IMG/VR virus record: IMGVR_UViG_2541047849_000007
DNA from: a virus
Taxonomy: Duplodnaviria; Heunggongvirae; Uroviricota; Caudoviricetes
Strand: one strand, 5' to 3'
Length of the DNA stretch: 32,016 nucleotides
In this document: piece after piece, positions 1-32,016 of the stretch
Layout: each line of letters starts with the position of its first letter
How positions within the stretch are numbered: position 1 is the first letter of the stretch
The notes under the pieces: model-generated
What the model was told of the DNA's origin: nothing
Seen by the model: the letters and a program-made list of their open reading frames with translations, nothing else
Database searches by the model: none
Made by a program: the position numbers and the translations under genes

Positions 1-633
1 TCATTCATCGTTCGTTGCACGAACGCGCCTGATCTCCACTCTGGCAATCTGATCTGCTGGAATATAGGTTGCCAGAGCTCCCCAGTACTTATCAACCACG
101 CCTTTATACTCTTCCCATTCGTTACTGCCTGAAGGGCTGCTGTGCGTGACGTAAAGAACCATATCGCCTTTATTCCCCAGGGTAAACGGACCGTTAGGCC
201 ACTCTTCAAAGTTCCCTGGCAGCCGTGACATCATACCGGAACCATCGCGAAGAATCACTCTGACCTCGGTAACGCTGAAGCCTGTTTGATCAAACATTGC
301 CTGCCATGCTGAGCTGGTATCGTCAGACCATGAAATATCATTATTCCACAGTAATCTGTACATCCATTTGCGACCGTACCTGCGCCACCACGCACCGCAT
401 GTAACGGCACACAGAAGTGCTGGTGGTGTTGCCAGCCAGGCATTCAGACCTGCCCACATAACAGCCTGGTAAGCCATCATTGCTGTCAGGCCAAAAATCA
501 GCGAAGAAAAAGTCACCTCAATGGGCTTGTGGTGATCCTTCAGTCCCACATTCGCAATAAAATACCCAATATAGCCACTGGTCAGGGTCACCAGTGTTGC
601 CCATGGCAGATTTAACAACGAAACGTCAAACAT
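1..633 (-). CDS. Membrane protein of unknown function (N-terminal TM helices plus soluble C-terminal domain)
   Basis: Track ORF 1..711(-). Preferred start is ATG at 631-633 with GGGAGA RBS about 5 nt upstream; stop at 1-3. Hydrophobic segments LPWATLVTLTSGYIGYFIANVGL, VTFSSLIFGLTAMMAYQAVMWAGL, AWLATPPALLCAVTCGAWW. No family recognised. Confidence 0.55.
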   Translation of the reverse strand: MFDVSLLNLPWATLVTLTSGYIGYFIANVGLKDHHKPIEVTFSSLIFGLTAMMAYQAVMWAGLNAWLATPPALLCAVTCGAWWRRYGRKWMYRLLWNNDISWSDDTSSAWQAMFDQTGFSVTEVRVILRDGSGMMSRLPGNFEEWPNGPFTLGNKGDMVLYVTHSSPSGSNEWEEYKGVVDKYWGALATYIPADQIARVEIRRVRATNDE

Positions 634-670
634 ATTTTCTCCCTGCATCCTGAATACTAAAGAGAGAGCA

Positions 671-707
671 TAAAAAAAGCACGGTAAGGGGTCTACCGTG
701 CTTTTAT
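671..707 (-). terminator. Rho-independent terminator downstream of mor-like gene (bidirectional hairpin)
   Basis: Perfect 9-bp inverted repeat AGCACGGTA / TACCGTGCT with 7-nt loop. Flanked by A7 on plus strand (U7 after the hairpin on the minus-strand transcript) and by TTTTA on the plus side. Confidence 0.55.
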
Positions 708-747
708 ACAATAAGGAGATTTTTGAAAGGACTTTAACAAGCAGGAA

Positions 748-1146
748 TTATCTGGATTTGTTAACGTCTTTCGTCTCCTCTGGCAGATCTTCATCAAACA
801 ACCTGCCCTGCATCCGATCCAGTTCTTCTTTTCTGACCCGCTTAACCACGCTGTAGACCCACTGAAGCGAAACACCAAACTTGCGGGCCAGTTCGTGGTG
901 GTTGCGTCCGTTAAACTCCCTGAAGATTTCCCGGTCGCGCTGACTGACCTTCCATACCATGCCCATCGGGAAATAAACGTTTTGCCCGCCCCAGACCTGC
1001 ATCATTCGGTTCGCGACGGCCTGACCAATCTGGTCGGCAATTGCGGGCTCAATATCAATAATCTCGCGAACGGTCTCAGAGGTATGCTGTGCCAGCTCCA
1101 CCAGGAGTTCCGGCCCTTTACTTCGAAACTGATTCAGGTCGCTCAT
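748..1146 (-). CDS. mor: Mor/C-family transcriptional activator (Mu middle/late activator family)
   Basis: 132 aa. C-terminal FREFNGRNHHELARKFGVSLQWVYSVVKR matches the Mor/C HTH region as I remember it. ATG at 1144-1146 with GGGAG RBS. Lies directly downstream of the GemA-like gene as in Mu. Confidence 0.7.
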   Translation of the reverse strand: MSDLNQFRSKGPELLVELAQHTSETVREIIDIEPAIADQIGQAVANRMMQVWGGQNVYFPMGMVWKVSQRDREIFREFNGRNHHELARKFGVSLQWVYSVVKRVRKEELDRMQGRLFDEDLPEETKDVNKSR

Positions 1147-1570
1147 GTTTTACTCCCGCAGCTCTGTGCTGCCACTTCTTCAGTTTCTCAATAACACTGC
1201 TTGCCTGTTCAGTATTGAGCCAGCGCAGGGCGCTGATGCCCGTTTCCCGCTTGATCCACCGCGCTAATGCATTTTCTGAACGGTCACGAACAATGCCGGC
1301 AGCAGCCATTTCAAGCCATAGCGCACGGATTTTCCTGGACTGCGGATGGTTATCCAGCGGTAAACCGGAGCTGGCTTTTCCGGCAGGCTTAACGCGAAAG
1401 CCTTTCCTTTTCATGGATTCCAGCACGCAGTTTAGTTGTGTGGTATCCATTCCTTTGGTTGAGGCTTTACCGGTCAGCCCCTGTAACATCTGGCGATAGG
1501 TGTCTTCATCCATACCCAGTTCATTACGGGCAATATGAATGAGCTGGATAAGACGTTGTTTAGTCATCAT
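1118..1570 (-). CDS. gemA: GemA-like protein (Mu gp16 family, DUF1018)
   Basis: About 150 aa from ATG 1568-1570 (AAGGAG RBS 5 nt upstream). N-terminal KQRLIQLIHIARNELGMDEDTYRQML resembles the GemA family. Overlaps the mor start by 29 nt. Confidence 0.65.
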   Translation of the reverse strand: MMTKQRLIQLIHIARNELGMDEDTYRQMLQGLTGKASTKGMDTTQLNCVLESMKRKGFRVKPAGKASSGLPLDNHPQSRKIRALWLEMAAAGIVRDRSENALARWIKRETGISALRWLNTEQASSVIEKLKKWQHRAAGVKHERPESVSK

Positions 1571-1775
1571 CGTTGCTCCTTTTACCTGCGCCACCGATAT
1601 AATCGACATATAAAGGAAGCGCCACAGGCCAGCACAGGAACATCACCGACCAGCTAATCCAGTAGCCGGCACCACTGTAACGTGAATAAAACCCTGAACG
1701 GCGGTGCAGTTCAGCAGTACACCAACCGACAAAACAATACCAGAACAGGGCACATACAACAGATTCAGCCGTCAT
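1560..1775 (-). CDS. Small hydrophobic protein (71 aa), unknown function
   Basis: Internal ATG 1773-1775 of track ORF 1560..1931, preceded by a G-rich RBS. Product is largely hydrophobic (VVCALFWYCFVGW ... WSVMFLCWPVALPLYV). Overlaps neighbouring genes on both sides. Confidence 0.35.
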   Translation of the reverse strand: MTAESVVCALFWYCFVGWCTAELHRRSGFYSRYSGAGYWISWSVMFLCWPVALPLYVDYIGGAGKRSNDDD

Positions 1776-1995
1776 TCTGAATATCCCCCCAACTGATATG
1801 AATATTACGGGCAGCAATGACAGGGTCGTTATTCCACCATGCACCTGACATGTATTTTTCAACCTGTTCGCGTCCGGCAATAACACCAATTGTGATCCCC
1901 GGCCTGACGTTCTTAAAAAAGGCGCGGGCAAAAAGGTATCTGGCAGATATTCGGCAGGCTTTTAATTTCCGGCTGTTACCTGATAGCGTAATCAT
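1765..1995 (-). CDS. Hypothetical protein (76 aa)
   Basis: ATG 1993-1995 overlaps the stop of the upstream gene (ATGA coupling); GGAGG RBS. Confidence 0.45.
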   Translation of the reverse strand: MITLSGNSRKLKACRISARYLFARAFFKNVRPGITIGVIAGREQVEKYMSGAWWNNDPVIAARNIHISWGDIQNDG

Positions 1996-2676
1996 CTGGC
2001 CTCCAGTTTCTGTTGTTCCTGCCCACTGACCGGGCGGTGCAGTCTGACGTTCTGCCCTTCACGAAACCCCGCATAGCGCGAGGCGTCGCCATTGCGGCTT
2101 CTTCCCGGTTTACGCGCCCTGGTGGTTTGCGTCTGCGGGTATTTATGTTCCAGCCACTGCTGCATCAGTTCACGCTCATCATCGGTCAGGGCAAAGGACT
2201 GTATTTCACTGATAACGGCCAGCACCCAGCCTTCGGCAAACTGGTCTCCACGGCTGGTGCGGGTGGCGGTTTTTATTCTTTTGTTCTGTGCACTGATATA
2301 CTGCTGACGCGCCTTTTTCAGCTGACGGGCCAGCACTTCCCAGGTGTATGCAGCCAGTGCCGCACGTTCCCGGTTGCCGTAGAACCCCACAGACGGATGC
2401 GTGCCGGGGTGAATGATGGAGTTAACACCAAATACCTCGCGGATGATGTTCATCAGGCCTGGCATGTAGCGCGGTGGACGGAGACTGCCTGTCGGCCAGT
2501 AGTGACTGATGGTTTCATCAATATCACTCATAGCAATGTCGGAATGTGTGATGCCGTGAACATCCATCAGTTTACGGGCTCGGCGCAGTGCCAGAGCGGC
2601 CTCGTGCGGGTTGCCGGATGCGGCCAGCGCCAGCAACTTTTTCAGTTTCTCAATGTGTTTATTCTGGTCTGTCATT
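1992..2676 (-). CDS. Hypothetical prophage protein, DUF2786-like N-terminus
   Basis: Start ATG 2674-2676 (GGAGAT RBS). N-terminal IEKLKKLLALAASGNPHEAALALRRARKLM resembles the DUF2786 signature from memory; needs HMM confirmation. Confidence 0.5.
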
Positions 2677-2887
2677 GTTCTGTATCTCCGGTATTTTTCT
2701 GCCGTTTCCATGCCCGGACAGCGTCGGACAGCTCTTTCAGGCTGTATGCTGCTTTAAGCTTTTCCCATAACCACTGTGTTGTTATGTGCATCAGCAGGGC
2801 AGCCAGGGCTGCCCCCGCACTGAGGCATGTCGCCAGGCCAGTAAGAATCAGTATCCATGCGGTGATTTCCCTGAGTATGTCAGCCAT
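2672..2887 (-). CDS. Small membrane protein (71 aa)
   Basis: ATG 2885-2887 with GGGAGG RBS. Central hydrophobic stretch AWILILTGLATCLSAGAALAALLM. Confidence 0.45.
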   Translation of the reverse strand: MADILREITAWILILTGLATCLSAGAALAALLMHITTQWLWEKLKAAYSLKELSDAVRAWKRQKNTGDTEQ

Positions 2888-2901
2888 TGAATGCCTCCCG
2901 G

Positions 2902-3198
2902 TTACTCGTTCGTGTAAATCACGCCCAGTCGTGCAGCCAGACGTTCCAGTTTTTTCTGTTTGTGGAAGTCAATCAGCCGGTCCATCCCCTGAAGGCGCAA
3001 TTGCTCTGTCATGATTTCCACGTCTGCCAGCTCTGCCGCGAGGTCGCTTTCGCTGCCCTGTCCGTTCAGATTGCGGGCAGCACTGGCCGCCAGTTCAGCG
3101 GCCTCTTCTGTCAGTTTCAGGGCCTGTGCGTCCGGCCCGAAACGCTGCAGGGCCAGACGGTAGAGGGCGGTGCGGGTGAGTATGGTGTTCCGTGTCAT
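2902..3198 (-). CDS. MazG-like all-alpha NTP pyrophosphohydrolase (putative)
   Basis: 98 aa. EExxE-type motif (LTEEAAELAAS) and a second acidic motif (AAELADVEIM) in the arrangement typical of MazG/HisE-type pyrophosphatases. ATG 3196-3198 with GAGGG RBS. Confidence 0.45.
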   Translation of the reverse strand: MTRNTILTRTALYRLALQRFGPDAQALKLTEEAAELAASAARNLNGQGSESDLAAELADVEIMTEQLRLQGMDRLIDFHKQKKLERLAARLGVIYTNE

Positions 3199-3207
3199 GC
3201 CGCGCCC

Positions 3208-3480
3208 TCAGTGCTTCCGGCTGACGGTGATGTGCAGGCCGCCTTCTGCAGTGGTTTCCATCCGGTACGGCACCTCATGCTCTGCCGTGTGGGTGAGTGT
3301 GTTCATCAGTACCTGCAGGGCAGCCGCCTTTCCGTTGGTTGCCACAATGGCCTGTGTGGTCATGCTGATTAGCGCCGTCAGGACGTGCTTCACATCGGTG
3401 AGGTCGCGGCATTCACACTCGTTGACATAGTGTTCAACAAGGGTTCGGGTGCGCTGTCGTGCTTCCTGTGGGGTAATCAT
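3208..3480 (-). CDS. Hypothetical protein (90 aa)
   Basis: ATG 3478-3480 with GGGAGG RBS; ATGA overlap with the downstream gene stop. No family recognised. Confidence 0.45.
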   Translation of the reverse strand: MITPQEARQRTRTLVEHYVNECECRDLTDVKHVLTALISMTTQAIVATNGKAAALQVLMNTLTHTAEHEVPYRMETTAEGGLHITVSRKH

Positions 3481-3671
3481 TGCGAGTCCTCCCTGTCAGG
3501 GCGGGAGAATTCCATGACGGGCACGTCTGCCGAAAAATGCTGGCTGCAGTACGGGCAGACCAGGGTGACGCGTACCGCAGGGATGTGGTATTTACCGGAC
3601 ATCACGGCGATGGCGCTGTGAAAACGCAGGGCTGTTATATCCCTCTCGCACTGAATACATTTAAATATCAT
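3477..3671 (-). CDS. Small Zn-ribbon-like protein (64 aa)
   Basis: Two CxxC pairs (CIQC ... CPYC). ATG 3669-3671 with GAGGAG RBS. Confidence 0.5.
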   Translation of the reverse strand: MIFKCIQCERDITALRFHSAIAVMSGKYHIPAVRVTLVCPYCSQHFSADVPVMEFSRPDREDSQ

Positions 3672-3768
3672 GATTTAATTCTCCTCTGTTTCCGGCGTGC
3701 AGAAGCCCGCGGCGCTGACGCCGGAATAAAAAAGAAAATGTTTTTATTAAATAATTAACGTGGTGTGT

Positions 3769-4299
3769 TTACTGCACATCCTGCTCAAAAGGAATTATTG
3801 AAAAATCCTCAATGTCGCTTTTAATGGAAATACCGGGAATATTTTTCACGGCCTCTTTTTCATTCAGGATAGCGTCTTTATTTATTTCCTCTTTTACACG
3901 AATAAAGCGCTCAAGCCCCAGACGTCTCAGTAATTCAATAACATTATCCGCCCCACGGATACTGACTGATGGCGGACGGTTTCGCCACTGCACCTCGCCG
4001 GTGGTAAGGTTAGCGAACTTCACCTTCCCGTTGCCGGTCAGTTCATCACGGTGCGCCTCACACCATGTCTGGATACCGGACTGCAGTTCGGCCATGCGTT
4101 TTTTCAGGCTCTCGGTGAGCGGGGCATAACGTGCGGTGATATCGCCAATGGCGTCATTCATTTCTGTTTCAGCCCTGACCAGTTCACGTTGTGCGTCACC
4201 GAGTAGTCTGATTCCCTCAATGACCTCTTCGCGTGTCCCTGGTACCCAGAGTGCCGCTGCGGCCTTGATACGTTTTGCCCCTTTTGTACTTTTTGCCAT
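3769..4299 (-). CDS. gam: Gam-like host-nuclease inhibitor (Mu Gam family)
   Basis: 176 aa with the size, charge pattern and coiled-coil character of Mu Gam. Sits downstream of transposition gene B as in Mu. Confidence 0.65.
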   Translation of the reverse strand: MAKSTKGAKRIKAAAALWVPGTREEVIEGIRLLGDAQRELVRAETEMNDAIGDITARYAPLTESLKKRMAELQSGIQTWCEAHRDELTGNGKVKFANLTTGEVQWRNRPPSVSIRGADNVIELLRRLGLERFIRVKEEINKDAILNEKEAVKNIPGISIKSDIEDFSIIPFEQDVQ

Positions 4300-4326
4300 A
4301 TTTTATGATTTCTCCGGTTGTGCTGA

Positions 4327-4596
4327 TTACCACAAAGATTCCGGCCACACGACGCGACAGCCGTGCAGTTCGAAAACGCCCTGACGGAAATATCCCCTGT
4401 GGTCATGTCCGGTATACAGATAACAGGCCTTTCCCTGCTCAAGCATGCGCATGCAATGCGCACTCCGGGAAACGCGGATGACAGGTTTGTTACCCCTGAT
4501 GGTGATGCTTTGTACATCCGTGTTCGTCGCCTTAAGCGCCATAATGGCTGACTGCACTTTGCTGATTTGCTGGTTGATACCTGTGGTGGATTTCAT
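4327..4596 (-). CDS. Hypothetical protein (89 aa)
   Basis: ATG 4594-4596 with AAGGAG RBS, immediately after the B stop (TAATAATG). Confidence 0.45.
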   Translation of the reverse strand: MKSTTGINQQISKVQSAIMALKATNTDVQSITIRGNKPVIRVSRSAHCMRMLEQGKACYLYTGHDHRGYFRQGVFELHGCRVVWPESLW

Positions 4597-4598
4597 TA

Positions 4599-5765
4599 TT
4601 AAACTCCTTTGACAACGTCAGCGTTGACCTGTGGAACCCCGATTTCAGCGGCCAGATTCATGGCGGCTATTACCAGGTTACTGACGGCCAGCGGATACAG
4701 CAGGCTGACCATATTTTTACGATGACTTCCCGGATTGCTCAGGCGGGCACGTATGGCATCCACTGCGCTGGCGTCCATAATGTCCGTCAGTTGTTTACCG
4801 GCCCGTTGCAGTTTGAACGTCAGAAATTCTTCAAGGTTATTGTCCAGAGGCAGAAGTTCGACCACCTCACAGCGCTGAACGACTTCACGGACTTCCATAT
4901 TGCGTTCAGACAGTTTTGTCGCCAGTTCCGGCTGGCCAATCAGCACGATGGACAGCAGTTTTTTGAAACCGGACTCCAGCTCAAAAAAGCGTTTGAGGTG
5001 TTTCAGTGTCGGAATGGGCAGACTGTGGGCCTCCTCAATCACCAGAACGTGGCTGAACCCCGCCTGGCTGCTGTCTTTCAGGACGCGATGCAACTGGCGA
5101 AAGCGGGCGTCCTGACTGCGTCTGATGCTTTCCAGTGGTGCGATGGTACTGATAATGGCTTCGGCAATAGCTGCTGCCTTCAGGGTTTTCCCTTTCACAT
5201 CGTTGTCTTCCATAGCGATGATGTATGGCTCGATAACAATTACCGGCGCATTCTCGCGGTTAATACGTTCAGTCAGGTCGCGGCGCAGCGTGGATTTACC
5301 CGCACCGGACTCACCGATGACGGCCATAAACCCACCATGACGGGCTGTCTGGTACAGCGCCTCACGCACGTAGCGAATGTCCGGGGTGGTGAACACATCA
5401 TCAGAACCCTGCATGGCTTCATCGGCGAACGGGTCACGGAAAAGACCAAACGCTTTTTTGGTTGCTGGAAATAACACCTGTTTTTTGAGTAACATATTCT
5501 CTTCCTCACTGAGGCTCGTTTTATCTGTGGTACCCGCTGTACGGGGCGTGGCCGCGCCCTGTACAGCATCAAAACTCTTCGTTGTATCAATCCCCTGACT
5601 TTCCAGCCAGGACGCAAGACGCCGGCGCACTTCTCCGGGGCTGGTGCGGGGCCACGCGTTATGATTCACAATCTGGGCCAGCGTGGCCTCAGAAACATCG
5701 ACAGCTCTCGCCGCCACCGCCTGTGGAATACGGGCCTCTTTCAGTTGCTGCTTCAGTACCAGCAT
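4599..5765 (-). CDS. AAA+ transposition ATPase / target-DNA activator (MuB/TniB-like)
   Basis: Walker A GESGAGKST and Walker B-like VLVIEEAH; N-terminal HTH-like region. Preferred start is ATG 5763-5765 (GAGGAGGG RBS 5 nt upstream) rather than the track start at 5792. Immediately downstream of the transposase. Confidence 0.8.
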   Translation of the reverse strand: MLVLKQQLKEARIPQAVAARAVDVSEATLAQIVNHNAWPRTSPGEVRRRLASWLESQGIDTTKSFDAVQGAATPRTAGTTDKTSLSEEENMLLKKQVLFPATKKAFGLFRDPFADEAMQGSDDVFTTPDIRYVREALYQTARHGGFMAVIGESGAGKSTLRRDLTERINRENAPVIVIEPYIIAMEDNDVKGKTLKAAAIAEAIISTIAPLESIRRSQDARFRQLHRVLKDSSQAGFSHVLVIEEAHSLPIPTLKHLKRFFELESGFKKLLSIVLIGQPELATKLSERNMEVREVVQRCEVVELLPLDNNLEEFLTFKLQRAGKQLTDIMDASAVDAIRARLSNPGSHRKNMVSLLYPLAVSNLVIAAMNLAAEIGVPQVNADVVKGV

Positions 5766-5775
5766 GTTTCCCTCC

Positions 5776-7545: not shown

Positions 7546-7560
7546 AGCTTGTCTTCCCTG

Positions 7561-7878
7561 TTATCCGATTCTGGCGGCAATTTTTCTGGCACGGTCGCGC
7601 AGGGTTTCGCCATCGCAGGTTTTCACCACGTTATTTACCGGTTGCGGCGCAACTGCCGGGCGCAATGCTGACTGATGCTGCAGACGTCTTATCTGCTGCA
7701 TCAGCATCACTTCCATCGTCAGTACAAACGGATGCGCCTCCTGTGCGGGTACGCAGATTTCACCGGAAGGTGTCACCACGCGGAAACCCTGCACCATCTC
7801 CGGCAGCAGATTACACAGTGCGTGCCCCAGTGCCTCCGGGCTGTCCATCAGGATATTTTGTGTGTTATCCGTGTTCAT
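7561..7878 (-). CDS. Hypothetical protein (105 aa)
   Basis: ATG 7876-7878 overlaps the upstream stop (TAATG). No family recognised. Confidence 0.4.
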   Translation of the reverse strand: MNTDNTQNILMDSPEALGHALCNLLPEMVQGFRVVTPSGEICVPAQEAHPFVLTMEVMLMQQIRRLQHQSALRPAVAPQPVNNVVKTCDGETLRDRARKIAARIG

Positions 7879-23202: not shown

Positions 23203-23209
23203 CATCACA

Positions 23210-23234: not shown

Positions 23235-23248
23235 CTCCTTTAATATCC
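23227..23248 (+). promoter_or_regulatory. Candidate late promoter motif, copy 3 (upstream of tail chaperone/TMP)
   Basis: CTTCTTAA-tctc-CTTTAATATC, identical outside the 4-nt spacer to the copy at 29577. About 51 nt upstream of ATG 23300. No recognisable -35. Confidence 0.45.
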
Positions 23249-23299
23249 GTCACGCGCTTCTCCCGACATACTGCCCTGAACTTACACAGGAGCACAATC

Positions 23300-23635: not shown

Positions 23636-23717
23636 TGCCCTCGATACTGACGATCTGGAGATGTGGCTGGAGCAGGCTGAAGAGCAAATAAAAAGCGAGT
23701 ACGGCGACAAATCATAG
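23300..23717 (+). CDS. Predicted frameshift-extended tail chaperone (requires a +1 shift near 23624-23630)
   Basis: A protein-like +1 frame (ARWFRFQPGEIDALDTDDLEMWLEQAEEQIKSEYGDKS) is open across the 3' end of the chaperone ORF and stops at 23717. The -1 frame is also open but reads as Arg/Trp-rich junk. Confidence 0.4.
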
Positions 23718-23792
23718 TACAGACAGCCGCCAGTAGCGGCTGTTCTGCGTTATCCCCTCACGTCTTTTCACCTTCCCCGGAGGTTAACCACT

Positions 23793-26744
23793 ATGTCGGG
23801 ACAGTTTTCAGTCGGCGTTGTTATCGGCGGGATGATTGGCAGCACATTCCGTTCTGCAATGAGCGGTACCCGCCGTGCGCTTGATTCCCTGAGCGATACC
23901 TCACGCCGCCTGCAGGAACGTCAGAACGCTTTAACCCGTGCAACAGAACGTTATGGTCAACTGGGCTCTTCCCGGATGCAGCATCTCAACAGCGAGCTGC
24001 TGCGGGTAAGCCGCACCATGGAGCAAATTGAGCGCCAGCAGCGCCGTCTGTCAGCGGCATCAGCCACCAGTGATGCGCTGAAAGCTAACCGCATGGCGCT
24101 GTATGGTCAGGGGATTGAAGCGTATGGCATGGCACAGACTGTTTATCATACGGTTTCCCCTGCCGTTCAGCAGTCCATGTCTTTTCAGGACAAAATGATT
24201 GATATGTCGATCACCGCAAAATATGACAATAAAACGCGGGATGCACTTGCCGGACAGATAAAAGGCTGGGCGCAAAAATACAATCAGTATCAGGATGAAC
24301 TGCAGGAGGCGGTGGGTTCGCTCATCAGCGACAATATTGATAACTTGTCAGATATCGGTTTTCTGATGCCGGATATTGCCCGCGCGGCAACGGCAACACG
24401 CACGTCATCTCAGGACTGGGCAAAAGTGGCCGCAGTCTGGCAAAACTCCCTGAAAGGTGCGGCCAGAGATTTTAGTGCCGTCCAGAATATTATGGCTTAT
24501 GCCGGTGACCAAGGGTCATTTGAAATCCCGGATCAGGTCAAGTGGATGCAGTCCCTGGCCCCAATGATGGCGGGTATTGCCAGTGGAAAAGAGGCTGTTG
24601 CTGAAATCGGGGCCAGTCTCCAGATAGCAAAAATCGGTGCGGGCTCCACCGACGAAGCAGCCAATAATTTTAAAAACTTTCTTACCAAAATTTTTGCCCG
24701 CGATACTCAGAAACAGTTTGCTGATCTGGGTATTGATTTGCAGGGTTCTGTTGCGAGTTATAAGGCTGCGGGGATCTCTCCGATTGAAGGGATGTTGAGT
24801 GTTATAGAACGTTACCTCAATGCCAAAAGCCCCGAAGCGCTGGCCGGCTTCAAATCCGCCATGAAAATAAAGAATGATACGGCAAGAGATGAGGCACTTC
24901 AGGCTCTGGCGAAAAACTTTGGTCTGGGCGATATGTTCGCGGATATGCAGGTCATGGCATTTATCCGCCCGATGCTGGCCAACATGGACAGATATCGCGA
25001 GATCCGTGCCGGTGCTCTCAGGGCTGCGGATAACGATTTGCTTGCCAGTGCTTACGATCAGCGGCTGAAATCTCCCCTTGAAGCCACTAAAGCGCTTATG
25101 GTCAGCAGTCGCGATCTGGCTATTACGCTGGGCGATCAGCTCGCCCCCTCTTTTATTTCTCTGACTCAGGAGCTGATCCCACTCATTCAGGGGGCAAAAC
25201 ACTGGGTGGCGACTCACCCGCAATTTGTCAGTGGGGCTTTTAAGCTCATCAGTGCGCTCCTTGCGATTAAGATAGCGACTGTTGGTCTCAAACTGGGGCT
25301 GAATCTCCTTATTTCCCCCTTTGTGAACGTCTGGAAAACTGCTGTTTTACTCCGGACCAACTGGCATCGACTGACTACCGCACTAGGAGAAGGTGGCAAA
25401 TTACGCTGGCTTGTCACTGGATTTAGCCGACTGACCAGCGGAGGACTGAAACTCAGCAAAGTTCTGGCGGGCAGCCTCGTTCGCGGTTTTATGAGCGCTG
25501 CACGTGCCGTTCTCTGGATTGGGCGAGCGCTGATGATGAATCCCATCGGTCTCGTTATCACCGCTGTCGCGGCAGCAGCTTACCTTATCTACCGCAACTG
25601 GGGGACAGTCAGTGGCTGGTTTAAACAGCGCTGGGCTGACATTCAGGAAGCCTTTAACGGCGGTATCGCGGGAACTGGTAAGCTGCTGATTAACTGGTCG
25701 CCGGCAGGGCTGCTCTATAAAGCCTTTGCGGCTGCGCTGAAATATTTCGGCGTTGCTCTGCCGGCAAAGTTCACCGACTTCGGTGGCCATCTTGTCGACG
25801 GTCTGATTAACGGTATCAAAAACAAATGGGGGTCGCTCAAATCCAGTGTAACCGGAATGGGTGACAGCATCAGTAGCTGGTTTAAACAGTGCTGGTCTGA
25901 CATTCAGGAGGCCTTTAACGGCGGTATCGCGGGAACTGGTAAGCTGCTGATTAACTGGTCGCCGGCAGGTCTGCTCTATAAAGCCTTTGCAGCTGCGCTG
26001 AAATATCTTGGTGTTGATCTGCCGGCAAAGTTCACCGACTTCGGTGGCCATCTTGTCGACGGTCTGATTAACGGTATCAAAAACAAATGGGAGTCGCTCA
26101 AATCCAGTGTAACCGGAATGGGTGACAGCATCAGTGGCTGGTTCAGTGAAAAGCTGGGTATTCATTCGCCGAGCCGCGTGTTTATGGGCTTTGGTGACAA
26201 TATCGCGCAGGGGGCCGCCATTGGCCTGCAGCGGAGCACTCCGATTGCAGCTCTGGCCGGGCAGCGAATGGCCAGTGAACTGCTCCCCAGAATGCCCGTG
26301 AGCATTCAGGGGCCAGAAATACGGGATAACACTTCAGGTGTTCGCTTCAGTATGCCGTTGCCCGATATCAACGGGTTTATGTCGTCTGCTAAAAATGCGA
26401 TCGGATCCGTAATCAATAGTTTGTCTTCCATGCCCGCTATTCCGATCTCCACCCGGGCATCGACTTTACCAGGTCAACGTCTGGCAAATGAGATGACACC
26501 GGATGTTCCCCGTATCCCCTCGCCTGAAATCCTGGCTGCCGGATATTCAGGCCGTGGTGCAGCTGCAACCGGCGGTGGAACGTCTGGTGGTATCCAGGTC
26601 AGCTTTAATCCTCAGTTTTTCCTCAATGGCAGGGAAACCACAGCGCCTGCAGGACTGACTGGTGCCCTGAATATGAGTCTGCATGAGCTGGAAAAAATGC
26701 TGGAGCGTCTGCTGGCTCAGAAACAACGTAAGGAGTACCGCTGA
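23793..26744 (+). CDS. Tail tape measure protein
   Basis: 983 aa, mostly helical with Gly-rich segments, downstream of the chaperone pair. Contains an internal 87-aa tandem duplication. Confidence 0.85.
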   Translation: MSGQFSVGVVIGGMIGSTFRSAMSGTRRALDSLSDTSRRLQERQNALTRATERYGQLGSSRMQHLNSELLRVSRTMEQIERQQRRLSAASATSDALKANRMALYGQGIEAYGMAQTVYHTVSPAVQQSMSFQDKMIDMSITAKYDNKTRDALAGQIKGWAQKYNQYQDELQEAVGSLISDNIDNLSDIGFLMPDIARAATATRTSSQDWAKVAAVWQNSLKGAARDFSAVQNIMAYAGDQGSFEIPDQVKWMQSLAPMMAGIASGKEAVAEIGASLQIAKIGAGSTDEAANNFKNFLTKIFARDTQKQFADLGIDLQGSVASYKAAGISPIEGMLSVIERYLNAKSPEALAGFKSAMKIKNDTARDEALQALAKNFGLGDMFADMQVMAFIRPMLANMDRYREIRAGALRAADNDLLASAYDQRLKSPLEATKALMVSSRDLAITLGDQLAPSFISLTQELIPLIQGAKHWVATHPQFVSGAFKLISALLAIKIATVGLKLGLNLLISPFVNVWKTAVLLRTNWHRLTTALGEGGKLRWLVTGFSRLTSGGLKLSKVLAGSLVRGFMSAARAVLWIGRALMMNPIGLVITAVAAAAYLIYRNWGTVSGWFKQRWADIQEAFNGGIAGTGKLLINWSPAGLLYKAFAAALKYFGVALPAKFTDFGGHLVDGLINGIKNKWGSLKSSVTGMGDSISSWFKQCWSDIQEAFNGGIAGTGKLLINWSPAGLLYKAFAAALKYLGVDLPAKFTDFGGHLVDGLINGIKNKWESLKSSVTGMGDSISGWFSEKLGIHSPSRVFMGFGDNIAQGAAIGLQRSTPIAALAGQRMASELLPRMPVSIQGPEIRDNTSGVRFSMPLPDINGFMSSAKNAIGSVINSLSSMPAIPISTRASTLPGQRLANEMTPDVPRIPSPEILAAGYSGRGAAATGGGTSGGIQVSFNPQFFLNGRETTAPAGLTGALNMSLHELEKMLERLLAQKQRKEYR
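25617..26140 (+). repeat. Tandem duplication (2 x 261 bp, about 96% identical) inside the tape measure gene
   Basis: Unit beginning TGGTTTAAACAG recurs 261 bp later. The protein repeat is WFKQ(R/C)W(A/S)DIQEAFNGGIAGTGKLLINWSPAGLLYKAFAAALKY ... FTDFGGHLVDGLINGIKNKW(G/E)SLKSSVTGMGDSIS. Confidence 0.85.
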
Positions 26745-27628
26745 TGTTTGCCGTACTGGGTGATATTGAGTTTGATCTGATTACCTACTGGGACGGCTTC
26801 GAGGCCACGTTCGGCGTCGATTATGCGGAGCATGCCCGCATCGGGGGTAAGCCTGGCCTGCAGTTCGTCGGCGACAGGCTGGACGAAATCCAGATAAGTC
26901 TGGTCTTCCATCAGCATTATTGTGCACCCGATGTGGAGCTGGCGAGACTGCGAACAACCATGAAAGCCCATCAGGCACTGGCGCTGGTCTTCGGCAACGG
27001 TGACTATCGTGGCTGGTTCGTGATTACCGATGTGACCGCAACCAGCGAGCAGACAGACAGCACCGGTAACGTGCTGGCTGTCAGTGCCACCGTGTCTCTC
27101 CGGGAATACACCGGTGATCCGAAAAATCCTCTGCAACCACCGGCAATACGCACGAAGCTCCCGGGTGTCGGGGCGGTCTCCGGTGCCATTCCTTCACCTT
27201 CAGGGGTGGCGCAGTTCATCCGCAACGGCGTCAACTATGCGAAACAGGCGCAGTCTGTACTCCAGACCACTATCAGCGCCGTTCGGGTGACACAGAAAAT
27301 GAAGGATAACCCCGTTGTCGCACTGACCCGTGTGCCGGGGCTGATGAGCGGACTGGGTAATATCTCCGGGGCTCTGGGGAAAAGTGTTCCGGCGTTTAAC
27401 GCACTCTCTGAATCCATGCCCGATGCCATCAGTCTGGCCAGAACAGCCAGCGAAGCAGCCACGTATGTACAGCAGGCACAGTCTGCGCTGAGTGGTGTGG
27501 ACAAAAGAAATATTGCAGGTGCTCTGGATACCGTTTCCGGGCAGCTTAACGCCGCCAGCACAGCATTCAACCGCATGTCTCCGGGATTAAGTGCAATGGC
27601 CGCCAGAATACTGACGAGGAGTGTGTGA
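26744..27628 (+). CDS. Tail protein (P2 gpU / Mu N DNA-circulation family)
   Basis: 294 aa directly after the tape measure gene (1-nt overlap TGATG). N-terminus MFAVLGDIEF ... is gpU-like. Confidence 0.55.
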   Translation: MFAVLGDIEFDLITYWDGFEATFGVDYAEHARIGGKPGLQFVGDRLDEIQISLVFHQHYCAPDVELARLRTTMKAHQALALVFGNGDYRGWFVITDVTATSEQTDSTGNVLAVSATVSLREYTGDPKNPLQPPAIRTKLPGVGAVSGAIPSPSGVAQFIRNGVNYAKQAQSVLQTTISAVRVTQKMKDNPVVALTRVPGLMSGLGNISGALGKSVPAFNALSESMPDAISLARTASEAATYVQQAQSALSGVDKRNIAGALDTVSGQLNAASTAFNRMSPGLSAMAARILTRSV

Positions 27629-27840
27629 TGTTTCTTGAACATGTTACCCGTGACGGAGAGCGCTGGGATTCGCTGGCATGGCAGTACTACGGTGACCCGC
27701 TGGGCTATCCCCGGATTATTGCCGCCAATCCGCACGTGGCCATCACGCCGGTGCTGCCCTCCGGGCTGTTGTTACTGATCCCGGTGATTGAGGCTGAAGA
27801 AGCCCGTACAGAAGAGGATATTGCCCCATGGCTGAGATAA
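27628..27840 (+). CDS. Tail protein X (P2 gpX-like)
   Basis: About 70 aa from ATG 27628. Size and position between the gpU-like and gpD-like genes fit P2 X. Confidence 0.55.
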   Translation: MFLEHVTRDGERWDSLAWQYYGDPLGYPRIIAANPHVAITPVLPSGLLLLIPVIEAEEARTEEDIAPWLR

Positions 27841-28982
27841 ACAGCACTGCGCAAGTCACATCAGCGTTAACCAGCGTCAGCGATGTGCTGACACCGGTGT
27901 TCACTCTGTGGTATCTGCAGAAAAACATCACCTCTGATATCGCGCCTTATGTCACCCGTGTGACCTGGAGCGATAACATCAAAAATGAGTCCGATACCAT
28001 TGAGGTGGAGCTGGACGACACCGATGGCCGCTGGCTGGATAAGTGGTATCCGGGCAAGGGTGACACGCTGACGCTGAAAATGGGCTATCAGGGCGAGAAG
28101 CTGCTGTCCTGCGGTACGTTCTCTATAGACGAGATCGAAGTGAGTTCGCCCGCTTCCGTTGTTTCTATCCGTGGGGTGGCCACCTCGGTTAACAGTGCTC
28201 TGCGGACTAAAACCAGTCGTGGTTTTGAGAACACCACGCTGGCAGCTGTTGCGGGGCGGATTGCCAGAAAGCACCGACTGAAACTGGTGGGCAGCATTGA
28301 GTCCATCAGAATCGACCGGGTGACCCAGTATGCTGAAACCGACGTGGGTTTTCTGCGCCGGCTGGCCAGCGAGTATGGTTATGCAGTGAAAGTGGTCAGT
28401 GACCAGCTGATTTTTTCTCATCTGGCCACACTGCGCAGTCAGGAGCCGGTCAGGCAGTTAAAACCGCAGGATGTGGCCCGCTTTTCCCTGCGTGACACCA
28501 TCAACCGGGTCTATAAATCTGCAAAGGTAAAACACCAGAAAAGCAGCAGTAAAAAACTGATCGTCTACGAAGCTGATGGTGGTACCCGTGAAAGCGACAA
28601 AAAGCTCAAAGGTGGTAAGGTTACCAGCGCTGACTCACTTAAAGTTAACAGCCGCGTCAGCGACCCGGACAGTGCCCGGATTAAAGCGGATTCAGCACTG
28701 GCCAGACATAACGAATACCAGCAGAACGGCTCCCTGACGCTGACGGGAACACCTCAACTGACAGCAGGCAACAAAATTGAACTGGTGGGTTTTGGGCAGT
28801 TATCCGGGCCATGGCTCATAACCACTGCCCGCCATGCGTTTGACCGTAACAGCGGCTACACCACAGAGCTGGAAGTGGCACGGGGGCCAGTCACAAGAGG
28901 GAAAAAACAAAAAACTCAGAAACTCACGGTTTATCACCCGGATGGCAGTACATCGACGGTGATTAAGGAGAAGAAAAAATGA
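27828..28982 (+). CDS. Late control D-like tail/baseplate hub protein (P2 gpD / Mu P)
   Basis: 384 aa; size and order match P2 gpD. Confidence 0.75.
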   Translation: MAEINSTAQVTSALTSVSDVLTPVFTLWYLQKNITSDIAPYVTRVTWSDNIKNESDTIEVELDDTDGRWLDKWYPGKGDTLTLKMGYQGEKLLSCGTFSIDEIEVSSPASVVSIRGVATSVNSALRTKTSRGFENTTLAAVAGRIARKHRLKLVGSIESIRIDRVTQYAETDVGFLRRLASEYGYAVKVVSDQLIFSHLATLRSQEPVRQLKPQDVARFSLRDTINRVYKSAKVKHQKSSSKKLIVYEADGGTRESDKKLKGGKVTSADSLKVNSRVSDPDSARIKADSALARHNEYQQNGSLTLTGTPQLTAGNKIELVGFGQLSGPWLITTARHAFDRNSGYTTELEVARGPVTRGKKQKTQKLTVYHPDGSTSTVIKEKKK

Positions 28983-29575
28983 CTGGTGTCACTCGTCAGG
29001 TCGGTACGGTCAGTGCCGTTGATGCCGACAGGGTTCAGGCCCGCGTTCGTCTGCCTGAATGCGATAACCTGCGCACAAACTGGCTTAACGTGCTGCAGCG
29101 CAATACCCAGGATAACAAAGATTACTGGCTCCCTGACGTGGGGGAGCAGGTTGAGGTGCTGCTCGATGCCAACGGCGAGGATGGTGTTATTCTGGGCGCG
29201 GTGTATTCAGACGTCGATAAACCACCGTTCAGTGACAAAAATATCCGGGGAACCCGGTTTGCTGATGGTGCAGAGTACAGCTACAACCGGAAGACGCACA
29301 CTCTGACCATCCGGGGCGGCATTGAGCATATTGTCATTGAGTGTGGTGCTGATGTGGTATTGAAAACACAGAAAGCCACGATTGACGCACCGGAAACCGA
29401 ACTTACCGGAGATCTGCGTGTCAGGGGAAAGCTGATTTACGAAGGAGGCATGGCGGGTTCTGGTGGTAAAGGTGTTACCGCGACCATCCATGGCAATATC
29501 GAGATTAAAGGGAATGCCCATGCCACGGGCAGTATGCTGTCTGATGGCGAAAACTCCAGCCACCACTCCCACTGA
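28979..29575 (+). CDS. Baseplate assembly protein V / spike (P2 gpV-like)
   Basis: 198 aa with a strong RBS (AAGGAG). Gly-rich C-terminus ending in a His-rich tip (SSHHSH), as seen in spike proteins. Confidence 0.7.
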   Translation: MTGVTRQVGTVSAVDADRVQARVRLPECDNLRTNWLNVLQRNTQDNKDYWLPDVGEQVEVLLDANGEDGVILGAVYSDVDKPPFSDKNIRGTRFADGAEYSYNRKTHTLTIRGGIEHIVIECGADVVLKTQKATIDAPETELTGDLRVRGKLIYEGGMAGSGGKGVTATIHGNIEIKGNAHATGSMLSDGENSSHHSH

Positions 29576-29576
29576 G

Positions 29577-29598
29577 CTTCTTAAACGCCTTTAATATC
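29577..29598 (+). promoter_or_regulatory. Candidate late promoter motif, copy 4 (upstream of baseplate W)
   Basis: CTTCTTAA-acgc-CTTTAATATC immediately after the V stop and about 31 nt upstream of ATG 29630. Confidence 0.45.
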
Positions 29599-29629
29599 AG
29601 CGTTCCCGCACGGGGGCAATACTGCCCCC

Positions 29630-29977
29630 ATGAAAACGACCTCAGTATTCTGGCAACCAGCCCTGCAGGCTCCCGGCGAAATTGTCCGGGGGCTGGATGA
29701 TATCCGGCAGGCGATTCAAATTATCCTGCGGACTCCCCGCGGCAGCGACCCGCATCGCCCGGAGTTCGGCAGCAATCTGCATCTTTATATCGACTGGCCT
29801 GTAGACCGGGCCATTCCGCATGTGGTGCGCGAATCCGTCGATGCCATCCGGCGCTGGGAGCCCCGCTGCCAGCTTATGTCAGTTAAACCCGCCGTCGACG
29901 GCGAACATCTTACGCTCCGGGTGAGCTGGAAAGGCTCAGACGGACAGACCCGGACTCAGGAGCTGCTATGGCGCTGA
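29630..29977 (+). CDS. Baseplate protein W (P2 gpW / GPW_gp25 family)
   Basis: 115 aa. The GLDDIRQAIQIILRTPRGSDPHRPEFGS region aligns to the conserved gpW core as I remember it. Confidence 0.8.
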   Translation: MKTTSVFWQPALQAPGEIVRGLDDIRQAIQIILRTPRGSDPHRPEFGSNLHLYIDWPVDRAIPHVVRESVDAIRRWEPRCQLMSVKPAVDGEHLTLRVSWKGSDGQTRTQELLWR

Positions 29978-31071
29978 CAGAACCCGATTTTATTGAACGC
30001 GATGCCGACAAAATCACGGCAGAAATGATTGCGAAGTATGAAGCGGATACCGGCAAAACGCTGTACCCGGCACAGGCAGAACGTCTGCTGATTGATCTGT
30101 GGGCCTATCGCGAAATGCTGGTCAGGGTTGCGGTACAGGAGGCAGCAAAGCAGAATCTGGTCGCCTTTGCCCGTGAGCCGATGATTGATTACCTCGGTGA
30201 ACTGGTCGGTGTATACCGTCTTGCCGCGCAGCCTGCCACCACCACGCTCCAGTTCTCCGTAGATGAGGCACTGGCCATTGATGTGCTGATCCCGGCAGGC
30301 ACCCGCGTCAGCGCTTCCGACAGCGTTATTTTTGCCACCGATACAGATGTGGTACTGAAGGCCGGATTGCTGCTGGTCAATGTCACGTCCACCTGTACCG
30401 AACCCGGTACCGCTGGTAACGGCTGGCAACCTGCGCAGGTCAGTCAGTTACTCGATGAGATTGATAACGTCGACCTGCTGGTGAGCAATCTGACGGCCAG
30501 TTCCGGCGGTTCAGAACAGGAAGACGATGACAGGCTCCGGGAGCGTATCAGGCTGGCCCCGGAGTCATTCACCAATGCCGGAAGCCGTGGCGCATACCGC
30601 TTTCATGCCATGCAGGCCCATCCCAACATTGTCGATGTTGCTGTGCTTTCCCCGGTTCCCGGGACCGTAGATCTGTATCCGCTGCTCAGTACCGGTCTGC
30701 CGGACGGCGGTGTTCTCACGCTGGTAGAGAGTTTCTGCTCTGATGAGAAAGTCAGGCCACTCACTGATACAGTGCGGGCTAAAACACCAGTGAAGGTGGA
30801 TTACACCATTGAAGCCAGGATTACGATCTATCGTGATCAGGATGCCAGGTCTGTAAAAGATGCCGCTAACAGCGCCATACAGAACTGGGTGGCATCACGT
30901 GCCGCCACGCTGGGGCGTGATATTGTCCCCAGCCAGATTATCAGTGCATTGTCCGTTTCCGGGGTGTACCAGGTTGAACTGGTGACACCGGCACTGCGGG
31001 TGGTGGCAGAAAACGAATGGGCAAACTGTACGGCAATCACTCTTAACATGAGTGGAGTGTCTGATGACTGA
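29968..31071 (+). CDS. Baseplate protein J (P2 gpJ-like)
   Basis: 367 aa following W with overlapping start (AGGAG RBS). Confidence 0.8.
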   Translation: MALTEPDFIERDADKITAEMIAKYEADTGKTLYPAQAERLLIDLWAYREMLVRVAVQEAAKQNLVAFAREPMIDYLGELVGVYRLAAQPATTTLQFSVDEALAIDVLIPAGTRVSASDSVIFATDTDVVLKAGLLLVNVTSTCTEPGTAGNGWQPAQVSQLLDEIDNVDLLVSNLTASSGGSEQEDDDRLRERIRLAPESFTNAGSRGAYRFHAMQAHPNIVDVAVLSPVPGTVDLYPLLSTGLPDGGVLTLVESFCSDEKVRPLTDTVRAKTPVKVDYTIEARITIYRDQDARSVKDAANSAIQNWVASRAATLGRDIVPSQIISALSVSGVYQVELVTPALRVVAENEWANCTAITLNMSGVSDD

Positions 31072-31642
31072 GCCATTACAACTCCCGCCACCGCTTGAGG
31101 GTGATATCAGTCTCAGGACGCTGGGAAGACTGGCAGGACGGCTGGATAACATCGACCTGAGCGTACTGATGGTCTTTCTCGTCGATATCGTCGACAGTTC
31201 CGCGCTGCCATGGCTGGGCGAGCAGTTCTCACTGTCTGGCGATGGCTGGGAGCTGGCGGAATCGGACGATGTTCGCCGCATGCTTATAAAAGCAGCCATC
31301 GAACTGCACCGGTATAAAGGGACGCCGTGGTCAATCCGGGAAGTTATCCGCCGTTTTGGCTTTGGTGAAGTGGATCTGATTGAAGGCACAGGTCGTCTCA
31401 GTTACGACGGCAATCGCAGCTATAACGGACTGTTTGTTCATGGAGATGCAGCCGCCTGGGCAGTTTATCGCGTTATTCTGAAACAGCCCATTACTAACGA
31501 TCAGGCCGCGATGCTGCGTCAGACGCTGGCTGCATTTGCACCGGCCCGCTGCCATCTGGCCAGCCTGGAGTATCAGTCTGTGGCCATTCGCTATAACAAT
31601 ACCGCCATCCATGATGGCAGTTATAACCACGGGAGCAGTTGA
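31064..31642 (+). CDS. Tail/baseplate protein (P2 gpI-like)
   Basis: ATG 31064 overlaps the J stop (ATGACTGA). About 192 aa. Position between J and the tail fibre gene. Confidence 0.6.
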   Translation: MTEPLQLPPPLEGDISLRTLGRLAGRLDNIDLSVLMVFLVDIVDSSALPWLGEQFSLSGDGWELAESDDVRRMLIKAAIELHRYKGTPWSIREVIRRFGFGEVDLIEGTGRLSYDGNRSYNGLFVHGDAAAWAVYRVILKQPITNDQAAMLRQTLAAFAPARCHLASLEYQSVAIRYNNTAIHDGSYNHGSS

Positions 31643-31645
31643 TTA

Positions 31646-32016
31646 TGGGAAACCTGAATGAAACAGAAAAGTGGGAAGAAAATATCTATCAACTGGAGAC
31701 ATCAGATCCGGTTCTGGGTGGTGCAGACGGGATATCAAATCGAGCCCCCCGGCAACTGGCAAACAGGACGAAATGGCTGAAGAAGAAAACGGAGGAAGCC
31801 GCACAGTCACTGGCTGAACACGTACGTTCCCGTAACCACCCGGACGCGACACTGACAGCTAAGGGGTTCACCCAACTGAGCAGTGCCACCAACAGCACCT
31901 CTGAAACGCTGGCCGCCACACCAAAAGCGGTCAAGGCTGCATACGACCTGGCAGCCGGCAAGGCGCCTGCCAGCCACACTCACCCGTGGAGTCAGATAAC
32001 GGGAGTGCCTGCGGCT
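31646..32016 (+). CDS. Tail fibre protein, N-terminal part (3' end beyond window)
   Basis: ATG 31646; the frame stays open to the window end. Contains the conserved tail-fibre N-terminal motif FTQLSSATNSTSETLAATPKAVKAAYDLA, as in lambda Stf and P2 H. Not in the ORF track because it has no stop in the window. Confidence 0.7.

Follow-up and report, generated by a model that had tools for sequence, protein, structure and literature searches.

A BcepMu-like transposable prophage of Escherichia coli with divergent early and late arms, a lysis cassette deleted in place, and probable Mor-type late promoters

The DNA considered here (the window: the whole 32,016-nucleotide stretch of IMG/VR record IMGVR_UViG_2541047849_000007, Caudoviricetes) holds the genes of a transposable phage. 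A map of its open reading frames (ORFs), together with the Prokaryotic Genome Annotation Pipeline (PGAP) annotation of an otherwise identical intact E. coli copy (designated L001, and used also to locate the ends of the element), divides these genes into four blocks: a long leftward block from 9355 down to 748, a single rightward repressor gene at 9456-9794, a small leftward accessory cluster at 9913-12011, and a rightward block from 12143 to the end of the window (Table 1). Two separate divergent gaps (9356-9455 and 12012-12142) lie between them. A previous sequence-only reading had proposed that early and late operons diverge, in the manner of phage BcepMu, instead of being collinear, as in phage Mu; the disposition of the minus-strand genes (9355 down to 748) and the plus-strand genes (from 12143 onward) agrees with that proposal. 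The interpretation developed below, in which we have a good deal of confidence, is that the window represents the middle 32 kb of a BcepMu-like transposable prophage residing in the E. coli KOEGE 7 (16a) chromosome, with divergent early and late arms, a lysis cassette deleted in situ, and late promoters that would be activated in trans by a Mor-type protein.

The transposition and other early genes had been read as extending leftward from a promoter at about 9403-9431. They do form a contiguous leftward series, and the candidate early promoter, Pe, lies in the 100-bp gap (9356-9455) between the ATG of a ner-like gene and the repressor ATG at 9456. It is this position, and not statistics, that supports Pe, because promoter-like matches in the region are no more frequent than chance would have them (3 found, 3.1 expected). 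The two copies of the 16-nt direct repeat that overlaps Pe, GTGCAGAnnnnnCTCAC, are candidate operators; two copies only are, by themselves, weak evidence of such a role. At the distal end of the arm, tblastn with Mu Mor and Mu C finds one locus, 748-1146, in the window and in the full prophage. The hairpin that follows it (705->675) has the longest stem among the minus-strand hairpins of the left arm and is placed like Mu's predicted terminator, right after mor. Of the two genes that had been assigned to the far left, the mor-like gene is firmly identified by its Pfam match, whereas a membrane protein is only plausible for the other: the 210-residue leftmost protein has uncharged stretches (residues 4-31 and 40-83) with Kyte-Doolittle hydropathy peaks of 1.2-1.5, compared with 1.8-2.5 in a holin control. 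This protein has no Pfam match and no BcepMu or Mu homologue; its exact sequence occurs in 10,838 blocks of an assembly index.

Head and tail genes had been placed rightward from about 12100, and so they are: the remnant of a holin start at 12143 is followed by the terminase genes (12357-14419), the head genes and a P2-like tail that runs to the end of the window. The first block (12357-17178) is 45-62% identical to BcepMu gp27-31 and is homologous also to Mu D, E, H, F and G; the tail genes are named by PGAP as P2-type gpE, U, X, D, V, W, J and I. As judged from these homologies, the packaging and head genes of the late arm are Mu-like and its tail genes P2-like.

Table 1. Genes and predicted signals of the window (window coordinates; +, rightward; -, leftward)
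Feature	Position	Strand	Remarks
Leftmost accessory gene, 210 amino acids	1-633	-	PGAP coding sequence in L001; PHROG 12870; beyond early-operon terminator
Terminator-like hairpin, 13-bp stem and T-run	675-705	-	Directly 3' of mor; putative early-operon end
Mor/C-family transcription activator	748-1146	-	PF08765, E=1e-43; 56% to BcepMu gp01, 31% to Mu Mor
Distal early genes	1118-4596	-	GemA 1118-1567; small ORFs; DUF2786/DUF7168 1992-2675; Gam 3769-4299; 89-residue ORF 4327-4596
AAA ATPase (B-like)	4599-5765	-	59% to BcepMu gp08; Pfam AAA_22
rve DDE transposase	5776-7545	-	68% to BcepMu gp09; Pfam rve
Promoter-proximal early genes	7561-9355	-	105-residue ORF; gp10-like DUF3102 7878-8795; gp12-like helix-turn-helix 8806-9114; ner-like gp16 homologue 9167-9355
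Candidate early promoter Pe, TTGACT-17-CATAAT	9403-9431	-	10/12, best sigma-70 match in 1-12400
Two 16-nt direct repeats, candidate operators	9409-9424 and 9440-9455		Overlap Pe; first copy in Pe spacer
Immunity repressor, XRE helix-turn-helix, 112 amino acids	9456-9794	+	PF01381; 37% to BcepMu gp17, E=4e-10
Hairpin terminator after repressor	9880-9904		
Accessory cluster	9913-12011	-	Dam methylase 9913-10677; 71-residue ORF 10870-11085; P-loop protein 11463-12011
Predicted late promoter 1 (Plys-equivalent), TTAA-CGCGCT-TTAA + CATGCT (12110-12115)	12072-12115	+	Conserved in KP12, PhiKM and BcepMu; untouched by deletion
Holin remnant, ATG + 7 codons	12143-12164	+	Ends at deletion junction 12163/12164
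gp26-like 3' remnant, 63 codons	12163-12354	+	phrog_436, positions 48-108 of 125
Packaging and head block 1	12357-17178	+	TerS (Mu gp27 family), TerL, portal, F-like, G-like
Predicted late promoter 2 (PI-equivalent), CTAA-AGCAGA-TTAA + CAAACT	17319-17362	+	Terminator-like hairpins 17162-17177 and 17244-17257 upstream
Head protease/scaffold, major head protein, connectors, tail sheath, tail tube, 93-residue ORF	17393-23202	+	Sequence comparison and PHROG
Predicted late promoter 3, TTAA-TCTCCT-TTAA + CATACT	23229-23272	+	Terminator-like hairpin 23209-23224 directly upstream
P2-like tail genes	23300-29575	+	gpE/E' chaperones, tape measure, gpU, gpX, gpD, gpV
Predicted late promoter 4, TTAA-ACGCCT-TTAA + AATACT	29580-29623	+	Hexamer ends 6 nt before gpW ATG
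Baseplate genes gpW, gpJ, gpI and tail-fibre 5' end	29630-32016	+	Fibre gene cut by window end

How closely does this arrangement follow that of BcepMu? Every gene of the window was compared with the proteins of BcepMu (NC_005882) and of Mu, and the BcepMu-like layout was recovered gene by gene: 32 of the 45 window genes have BcepMu homologues, with order and strand preserved and amino-acid identities of 30-76%. They include Mor, GemA, the ATPase, the transposase, gp10, gp12, gp16, gp17 and every gene from TerS (gp27) to gpI (gp51), the last series being collinear throughout at 31-76% identity and consisting of a Mu-like head followed by a tail in P2 order. As published, BcepMu has genes 1-13 on the bottom strand and 17-52 on the top strand, with the gp16/gp17 control region at the interface; the top strand carries a holin-endolysin-Rz/Rz1 cassette, head genes and a P2-like tail; the termini are CA, the transposase is of the Tn552/IS1604 type, and a fibre inversion system is reported to be lacking (PMC2771037). 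The window likewise has its clusters on opposite strands with the control genes (the homologues of gp16, 46% identical, and gp17) at their interface, an rve transposase of the Tn552/IS1604 type, and an ATPase of the gp08 type.

Likeness to BcepMu and its relative phiE255 thus comprises the divergent clusters, the gp16/gp17-type switch at the interface, Mor and GemA at the far left, TG...CA ends, the order holin-SLT-Rz, gp25, gp26, TerS in intact relatives, and similar dyad motifs ahead of the holin, protease and gpW genes. The differences are these: 1) additions of the E. coli lineage are a Gam of the Mu type, a Dam methylase, leftward accessory genes (where BcepMu gp18-20 read rightward) and the leftmost gene; 2) beyond the right-hand limit of the window this lineage carries an invertible fibre segment and a Gin-type invertase; 3) it is without BcepMu gp03-07 and the gp53 acyltransferase; 4) the KOEGE 7 copy is without a lysis cassette. 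At the nucleotide level, 31% of the window aligns with BcepMu, at 67.6% identity (about 21% overall), and megablast returns no BcepMu match. A phage genus is delimited, in ICTV practice, at about 70% genome-wide nucleotide identity. With about 21% similarity to BcepMu the window lies outside the strict nucleotide limits of Bcepmuvirus and therefore belongs to a wider BcepMu-like group.

The nearest phage is Escherichia phage PhiKM (PQ738613), an inducible phage from a uropathogenic strain, which has the same gene order and is 95% identical over 96% of the window (95% over 90% of the megablast query, window 1-25000, with which complete E. coli genomes were also searched); the two belong to the same phage species group. 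PhiKM is filed in GenBank as a Bcepmuvirus, a label that reflects relatedness and not the nucleotide criterion of the genus. Klebsiella phage KP12 is 84% identical. The record of KP12 clone KP12_2 (OM835952.1, designated L018) is filed under Vequintavirinae although its genome is that of a BcepMu-like transposable phage; it is probably a co-purified prophage contig with a wrong taxonomy label.

The relation to Mu is of another order. Starting at the early promoter, the genes of Mu follow the same early order (ner, A, B, gam, gemA, mor); Mu also has the same replicative-transposition lifestyle, and homologous packaging and head genes. It is collinear except for its repressor, whereas the early operon of the window is turned round, as one block, with respect to the late genes; its (Mu's) A and B proteins are unrelated to those of the window, its tail is Mu-type, and it uses two activators, Mor and then C. 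Could the window nevertheless be a true Mu-family (Muvirus) prophage whose early region was recently inverted? Homologues of Mu are limited to Mor, GemA, Gam, TerS, TerL, the portal, F, G, a gp36-like connector and a weak gpJ-Mu gp47 match (E=7e-5); the first eight of these, and a Gin homologue (77%) to the right of the window, would fit such an origin. Muvirus, however, is defined by MuA/MuB, collinear transcription and a Mor-C pair, and BLASTP and tblastn detect no similarity to MuA, MuB, c, ner, C, lys, com or mom; there is one Mor/C-family gene; only 2.4% of the window aligns with Mu DNA; the tail is P2-type; and the target duplication is 6 bp (see below). We regard a rearranged Muvirus as next to impossible. 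One early gene does point toward Mu: Gam (3769-4299, - strand) is 61.5% identical to Mu Gam and is without a BcepMu counterpart. By this comparison it is a Mu-derived module in the early arm, and evidence of mosaicism between two transposable-phage lineages in E. coli.

A further point of reference is provided by the B3-like Pseudomonas phages, in which an inverted early operon has been described (PMC5977238). Their transposase is of the same family as that of the window (56% identity). B3-like saltoviruses are, on the other hand, siphoviruses with unrelated tail genes, and they were compared here by transposase alone.

The window maps to the E. coli chromosome, where its best matches are 100% identical to the query. 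Among 5,426 complete E. coli genomes, 648 (about 12%) match the query, and 585 carry at least 80% of it at one place; the possibility that the window is an assembly chimera of two elements, on which the divergent layout would have foundered, is thereby ruled out. Intact copies, one of which lies in NZ_CP156706 (770807-819959), are likewise 100% identical to the window, compared base by base with L001, save for a deletion and two single-base differences in 32 kb. The latter, as seen against strain PKF11, are at window positions 140 (residue 165 of the leftmost protein, S in the window and I in PKF11) and 24512 (silent, in the tape-measure gene).

It is the deletion that identifies the source and accounts for a peculiarity of the window. 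That no lysis genes stand ahead of the terminase, as had been remarked, is correct: searched by tblastn with BcepMu gp21-25 and the lysis proteins of Mu, the window yields no match. The conclusion that had been drawn from it, namely that these genes lie elsewhere, outside the window, does not hold. For a query of 25,000 bp the best genome matches extend over 27,153 bp: window 1-12164 corresponds to L001 11001-23164, and window 12163-32016 to L001 25316-45169, so that 2,153 bp are missing at the junction 12163/12164, which has a 2-bp microhomology (TA) and no flanking repeat shared by the two breakpoints. The missing segment encodes a holin (PF13272, E=2e-41 for the intact L001 protein; 59% to BcepMu gp21), an SLT endolysin (PF01464; 62% to gp22), an Rz-like spanin (PHROG 1403, E=2e-89), a gp25 homologue and the first 40 codons of a gp26 homologue. 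What is left of the holin gene, its ATG and seven codons (12143-12163), reads out of frame into the gp26-like remnant; no database record was found for the resulting 42-residue frame-shifted peptide. An overlapping chimeric ORF (12040-12354, 104 residues) is annotated as G879_02243 (ERB06718.1) in E. coli KOEGE 7 (16a) (GCA_000459575.1, on the 2.5-Mb scaffold KE701198.1), and this strain is the sole known source of the junction, which is contiguous in 0 of the 5,426 complete genomes and has 0 exact matches in metagenome contigs of the Joint Genome Institute (JGI).

The cassette stands at the same place, upstream of gp25, gp26 and TerS, in PhiKM, KP12, phiE255, BcepMu and another E. coli copy. 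A lysis cassette at the head of the top strand, characteristic of BcepMu-like phages, is thus missing from the window and present in all relatives examined, and PhiKM and all the complete-genome copies examined keep it; the deletion is private to this prophage. Because the relatives keep the cassette here and a holin scar remains, the lysis genes are to be regarded as deleted in situ rather than located outside the window; with only two substitutions separating the window from PKF11 over 32 kb, the deletion must be evolutionarily very recent. The cassette was, in short, deleted in place, recently, in one strain: a secondary loss in one copy and not a difference of kind. The contrast that had been drawn with Mu on this point applies therefore to this copy, which is without lysis genes, and fails as a trait of the layout, since BcepMu-type phages place their lysis genes before the terminase just as Mu does.

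Two other explanations of the missing genes have to be weighed. The first keeps the idea of a rearranged layout in which the lysis genes of this type of phage sit elsewhere, and about 3.6 kb of the prophage does lie outside the window, in which no lysis genes are found. In near-identical relatives those outer parts hold only a 53-residue ORF, a tail fibre, a chaperone, an inverted fibre gene and an invertase; in BcepMu, phiE255, KP12, PhiKM and other E. coli copies the cassette is always directly upstream of gp25/gp26/TerS; and the holin ATG with its seven codons persists at 12143. This explanation is accordingly very improbable. The second would have the deletion be an artefact of a draft assembly, the real KOEGE 7 prophage being intact. 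That the junction is known from one strain only, and that the NCBI record is a short-read draft scaffold, speak for an artefact; the cleanness of the junction (no Ns, microhomology of 2 bp only), breakpoints devoid of a common repeat able to collapse an assembly, and flanks that are otherwise base-perfect speak against it. The chimeric protein, moreover, forms a singleton cluster that is counted on 1 NCBI contig, is also listed by Logan (a separate assembly resource), and occurs on a second contig, 20-50 kb in length. For comparison, 799 contigs carry the intact gp26-like protein in its exact form, and 703 the exact holin. We consider an assembly artefact improbable and hold to a deletion in situ.

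What might turn on the late arm, and is it the Mor-family protein made from the other arm? The gaps preceding the holin, head protease/scaffold, gpE chaperone and gpW genes have a common motif, YTAA-N5-WTTAAWATC, to which, with one mismatch allowed, there are four matches in the window (at 12073, 17320, 23230 and 29581), all on the + strand, for 0.1 expected. All four recur at the syntenic gaps of KP12, between flanks that have diverged, and AT-rich degenerate versions precede the holin, protease and gpW genes of BcepMu and phiE255 (63% G+C). In all twelve sites of three genomes (4 of 4 in the window) the second TTAA is followed, at a distance of exactly 23 nt, by a hexamer of the form xAxxxT; the background frequency of such hexamers is 0.049 in the window and 0.033 in BcepMu. 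The spacing equals that of the Mu middle promoter Pm, in which AGTAA-AGCCGG-TTAAT is followed 23 nt later by TATCCT. The published Mor site is a 16-bp dyad of 5-bp inverted repeats with a G/C-rich 6-nt spacer, extending from -51 to -36, centred at -43.5 and replacing the -35 element (PMC4390567, PMC4287176). The four window sites have, at the level of sequence, each element of such a Mor-dependent promoter (the dyad, the spacer, a -10 and no -35), and the first two are found in places equivalent to those of Mu late promoters, before the lysis genes and between G and I. Mu's own C-dependent late promoters carry a distinct box, ATAACCCC. Consensus sigma-70 promoters are fewer on the late arm than expected (4 found, 9.7 expected), and terminator-like hairpins lie upstream of late promoters 2 and 3.

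Might the TTAA-N6-TTAA element instead be some other conserved intergenic signal: an AT-rich -10 (TAAAAT/TAATAT), a site for integration host factor (IHF) or for the nucleoid protein H-NS, or the tail of a terminator? The motif itself contains good -10-like hexamers, TAAAAT and TAATAT, which were at first read as the -10 elements and were given up in that role once the fixed offset of xAxxxT and the match to Pm geometry had been noted; two of the sites come directly after terminator hairpins, and the correspondence to Mor-dependent promoters is one of sequence. The identical distance of xAxxxT in all twelve sites, the agreement of dyad, spacer and hexamer spacing with an experimentally defined Mor site, and the want of a -35 at 17 bp upstream of the internal TAAAAT count against a signal of another kind. 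We judge it unlikely, if less so than the other alternatives considered in this text, and prefer to regard these elements as Mor-type promoters.

Given that the right arm has four promoters of the Pm type and the left arm one gene of the Mor/C family, the earlier suggestion that late activation operates in trans, on promoters of the opposite arm, is plausible, and a regulatory cascade can be proposed. On induction, Pe (9431->9403), with a predicted start near 9396 on the minus strand, would drive an approximately 8.7-kb leftward operon ending with mor and its terminator (705->675). The Mor-family protein, made last, would then act in trans on the four rightward promoters, each consisting of a (C/T)TAA-N6-TTAA dyad at about -50 to -35, an xAxxxT -10 and no -35 (the architecture of Mu Pm), with transcription predicted to start near 12122, 17369, 23279 and 29630. 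Since there is a single gene of the Mor/C family, the cascade is probably two-tier (early to late) and not three-tier, as in Mu (early, Mor, C, late). Because promoter 1 is untouched by the deletion, the terminase and head genes should still be expressed in the KOEGE 7 copy, which would retain transposition and expression of head and tail while losing cell lysis. The full proposal, then, is that BcepMu-type phages run a two-tier cascade in which one Mor-family activator fires four Pm-type promoters (for lysis/packaging, head, tail and baseplate) with no C stage, and that the KOEGE 7 prophage is a natural lysis-null mutant, filling cells with particles that cannot be released. We see the chances of this proposal's being right, as a whole, as evenly balanced.

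Several considerations weigh against the interpretation offered here. 1) The deletion is documented in a single draft assembly. 2) The lysis deficiency is something that we infer, and lysis functions could come from a different prophage of the cell. 3) For Pe and for the operators, terminators and start sites alike, the assignment is a prediction from sequence. 4) The late-promoter pattern was derived from the four sites and then counted; being built from the same sites, the count alone is not independent evidence, and the independent support, itself comparative, consists only of conservation in relatives and the match to Mu Pm. 5) At promoter 4 no more than 6 nt separate the hexamer from the gpW ATG, which leaves awkwardly little room for a normal leader. 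6) The BcepMu site before gp41 is weak (TTAA-TCTGCG-CTGA). 7) Window Mor is only 31% identical to Mu Mor, so that shared DNA specificity is not guaranteed. 8) The ends and the insertion site, to which we now turn, were mapped in relatives (L001 and a second copy, L007) and not in KOEGE 7.

(A technical note on promoter 4: the same arrangement, at window 29618-29632, is found in BcepMu. Its transcript would be leaderless, or the promoter would serve the genes after gpW.)

The prophage ends had been predicted to lie outside the window and to be of the TG...CA form, and in relatives they are indeed found there, the left one 361 bp and the right one 3,196 bp beyond the limits of the window. In L001, where the prophage splits the gene of a FadR/GntR regulator, the left end is TGATCAGACATGAGATAAATGA and the right end is GCGCATTTATCGCGCGGCGCATCA. 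The end sequences (TGATCAG...GCATCA) have in common only TGAT and two GnGATAAAT repeats, at positions 12 and 35 from each end; an ungapped search between both ends detects no long terminal inverted repeats (at least 19 of 25 positions). Mu duplicates 5 bp of its target, and a 5-bp duplication had been expected here as well; two independent insertions show 6 bp instead. GAAAGT flanks both ends of L001, and a reconstructed empty site with a single GAAAGT is identical at 400 of 400 positions in many prophage-free genomes; the element is therefore 37,726 bp long, with a 6-bp duplication. (The corresponding sizes are 37.7 kb in intact copies and an expected 35.6 kb or so in KOEGE 7.) The second insertion, that of L007 in irp1, has the same ends and duplicates GCAAGT. 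The length of the target duplication is not stated in PMC5977238. Ten more assemblies provide ten more flanking contexts with no obvious target consensus, making at least 12 different flanks in all: this element inserts by transposition at many different host sites and, as mapped in relatives, has TG...CA termini, as BcepMu-like phages do.

Three observations may be added. The L007 prophage (NZ_CP082056.1, 2272500-2312200) is that of E. coli MS20675, an isolate from cerebrospinal fluid; it splits irp1, which encodes the yersiniabactin synthase HMWP1, and constitutes an insertional inactivation of a virulence locus. Some 2-3 kb to the right of the window end (L001 47182-48287), a serine recombinase 77% identical to Mu Gin adjoins an inverted tail-fibre gene fragment, which points to an invertible host-range segment of the Mu kind in a phage whose backbone is BcepMu-type. 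Finally, a 145-bp piece of the left end (L001 10649-10793, prophage bases 10-154, including the transposase-binding repeats) has matches of about 90% on some 100 large E. coli plasmids, many of them from poultry isolates, with no annotated feature at the matches; these could derive from the end of a related element or represent a remnant.

The region between the arms deserves separate comment. PGAP starts the repressor gene at 9336 (9336-9794, + strand), overlapping the ner-like gene by 20 bp. From the ATG at 9456 the protein has 112 residues and aligns with BcepMu gp17 from residue 2, and the 112-residue form is called in other assemblies; judging by this alignment, the PGAP start is probably too far upstream. 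The accessory cluster forms a third, small leftward group whose gene content varies among E. coli copies; its genes are without BcepMu or Mu homologues in the gene-by-gene comparison, and PADLOC assigns them to no defence system beyond a generic methyltransferase. Its P-loop protein (11463-12011, - strand) has 182 residues in the window and in L001; the homologues of PhiKM and of another E. coli copy have 242 and 247, respectively. Its match to the corresponding PHROG profile (242 positions) falls into two stretches, so that it may carry an internal deletion. The PADLOC matches of this protein (SngB, HerA) are weak and below any useful threshold. Two non-coding gaps interrupt the cluster, 10678-10869 (- strand) and 11086-11462; the former folds into an 11-bp G+C-rich hairpin (z=-2.6 relative to shuffled sequences), and no Rfam family reaches the gathering threshold.

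The divergent layout of the BcepMu/B3 type is already known (the literature dates from 2004-2009), and the E. coli lineage has already been deposited as a phage. What is added here is a strain-private loss of the lysis genes in situ, the exact ends of the element with their 6-bp duplication, and a map of four putative Mor-type late promoters. An annotation trap is thereby corrected: the missing lysis genes are a strain-private deletion, and this prophage is to be scored as lysis-defective and not as "intact". For a prophage present in about 12% of complete E. coli genomes there are now precise ends, a 6-bp target duplication and evidence of random insertion. The late-promoter map, for its part, would allow the Pm/Mor system of Mu to be compared with that of a simpler, one-activator relative.

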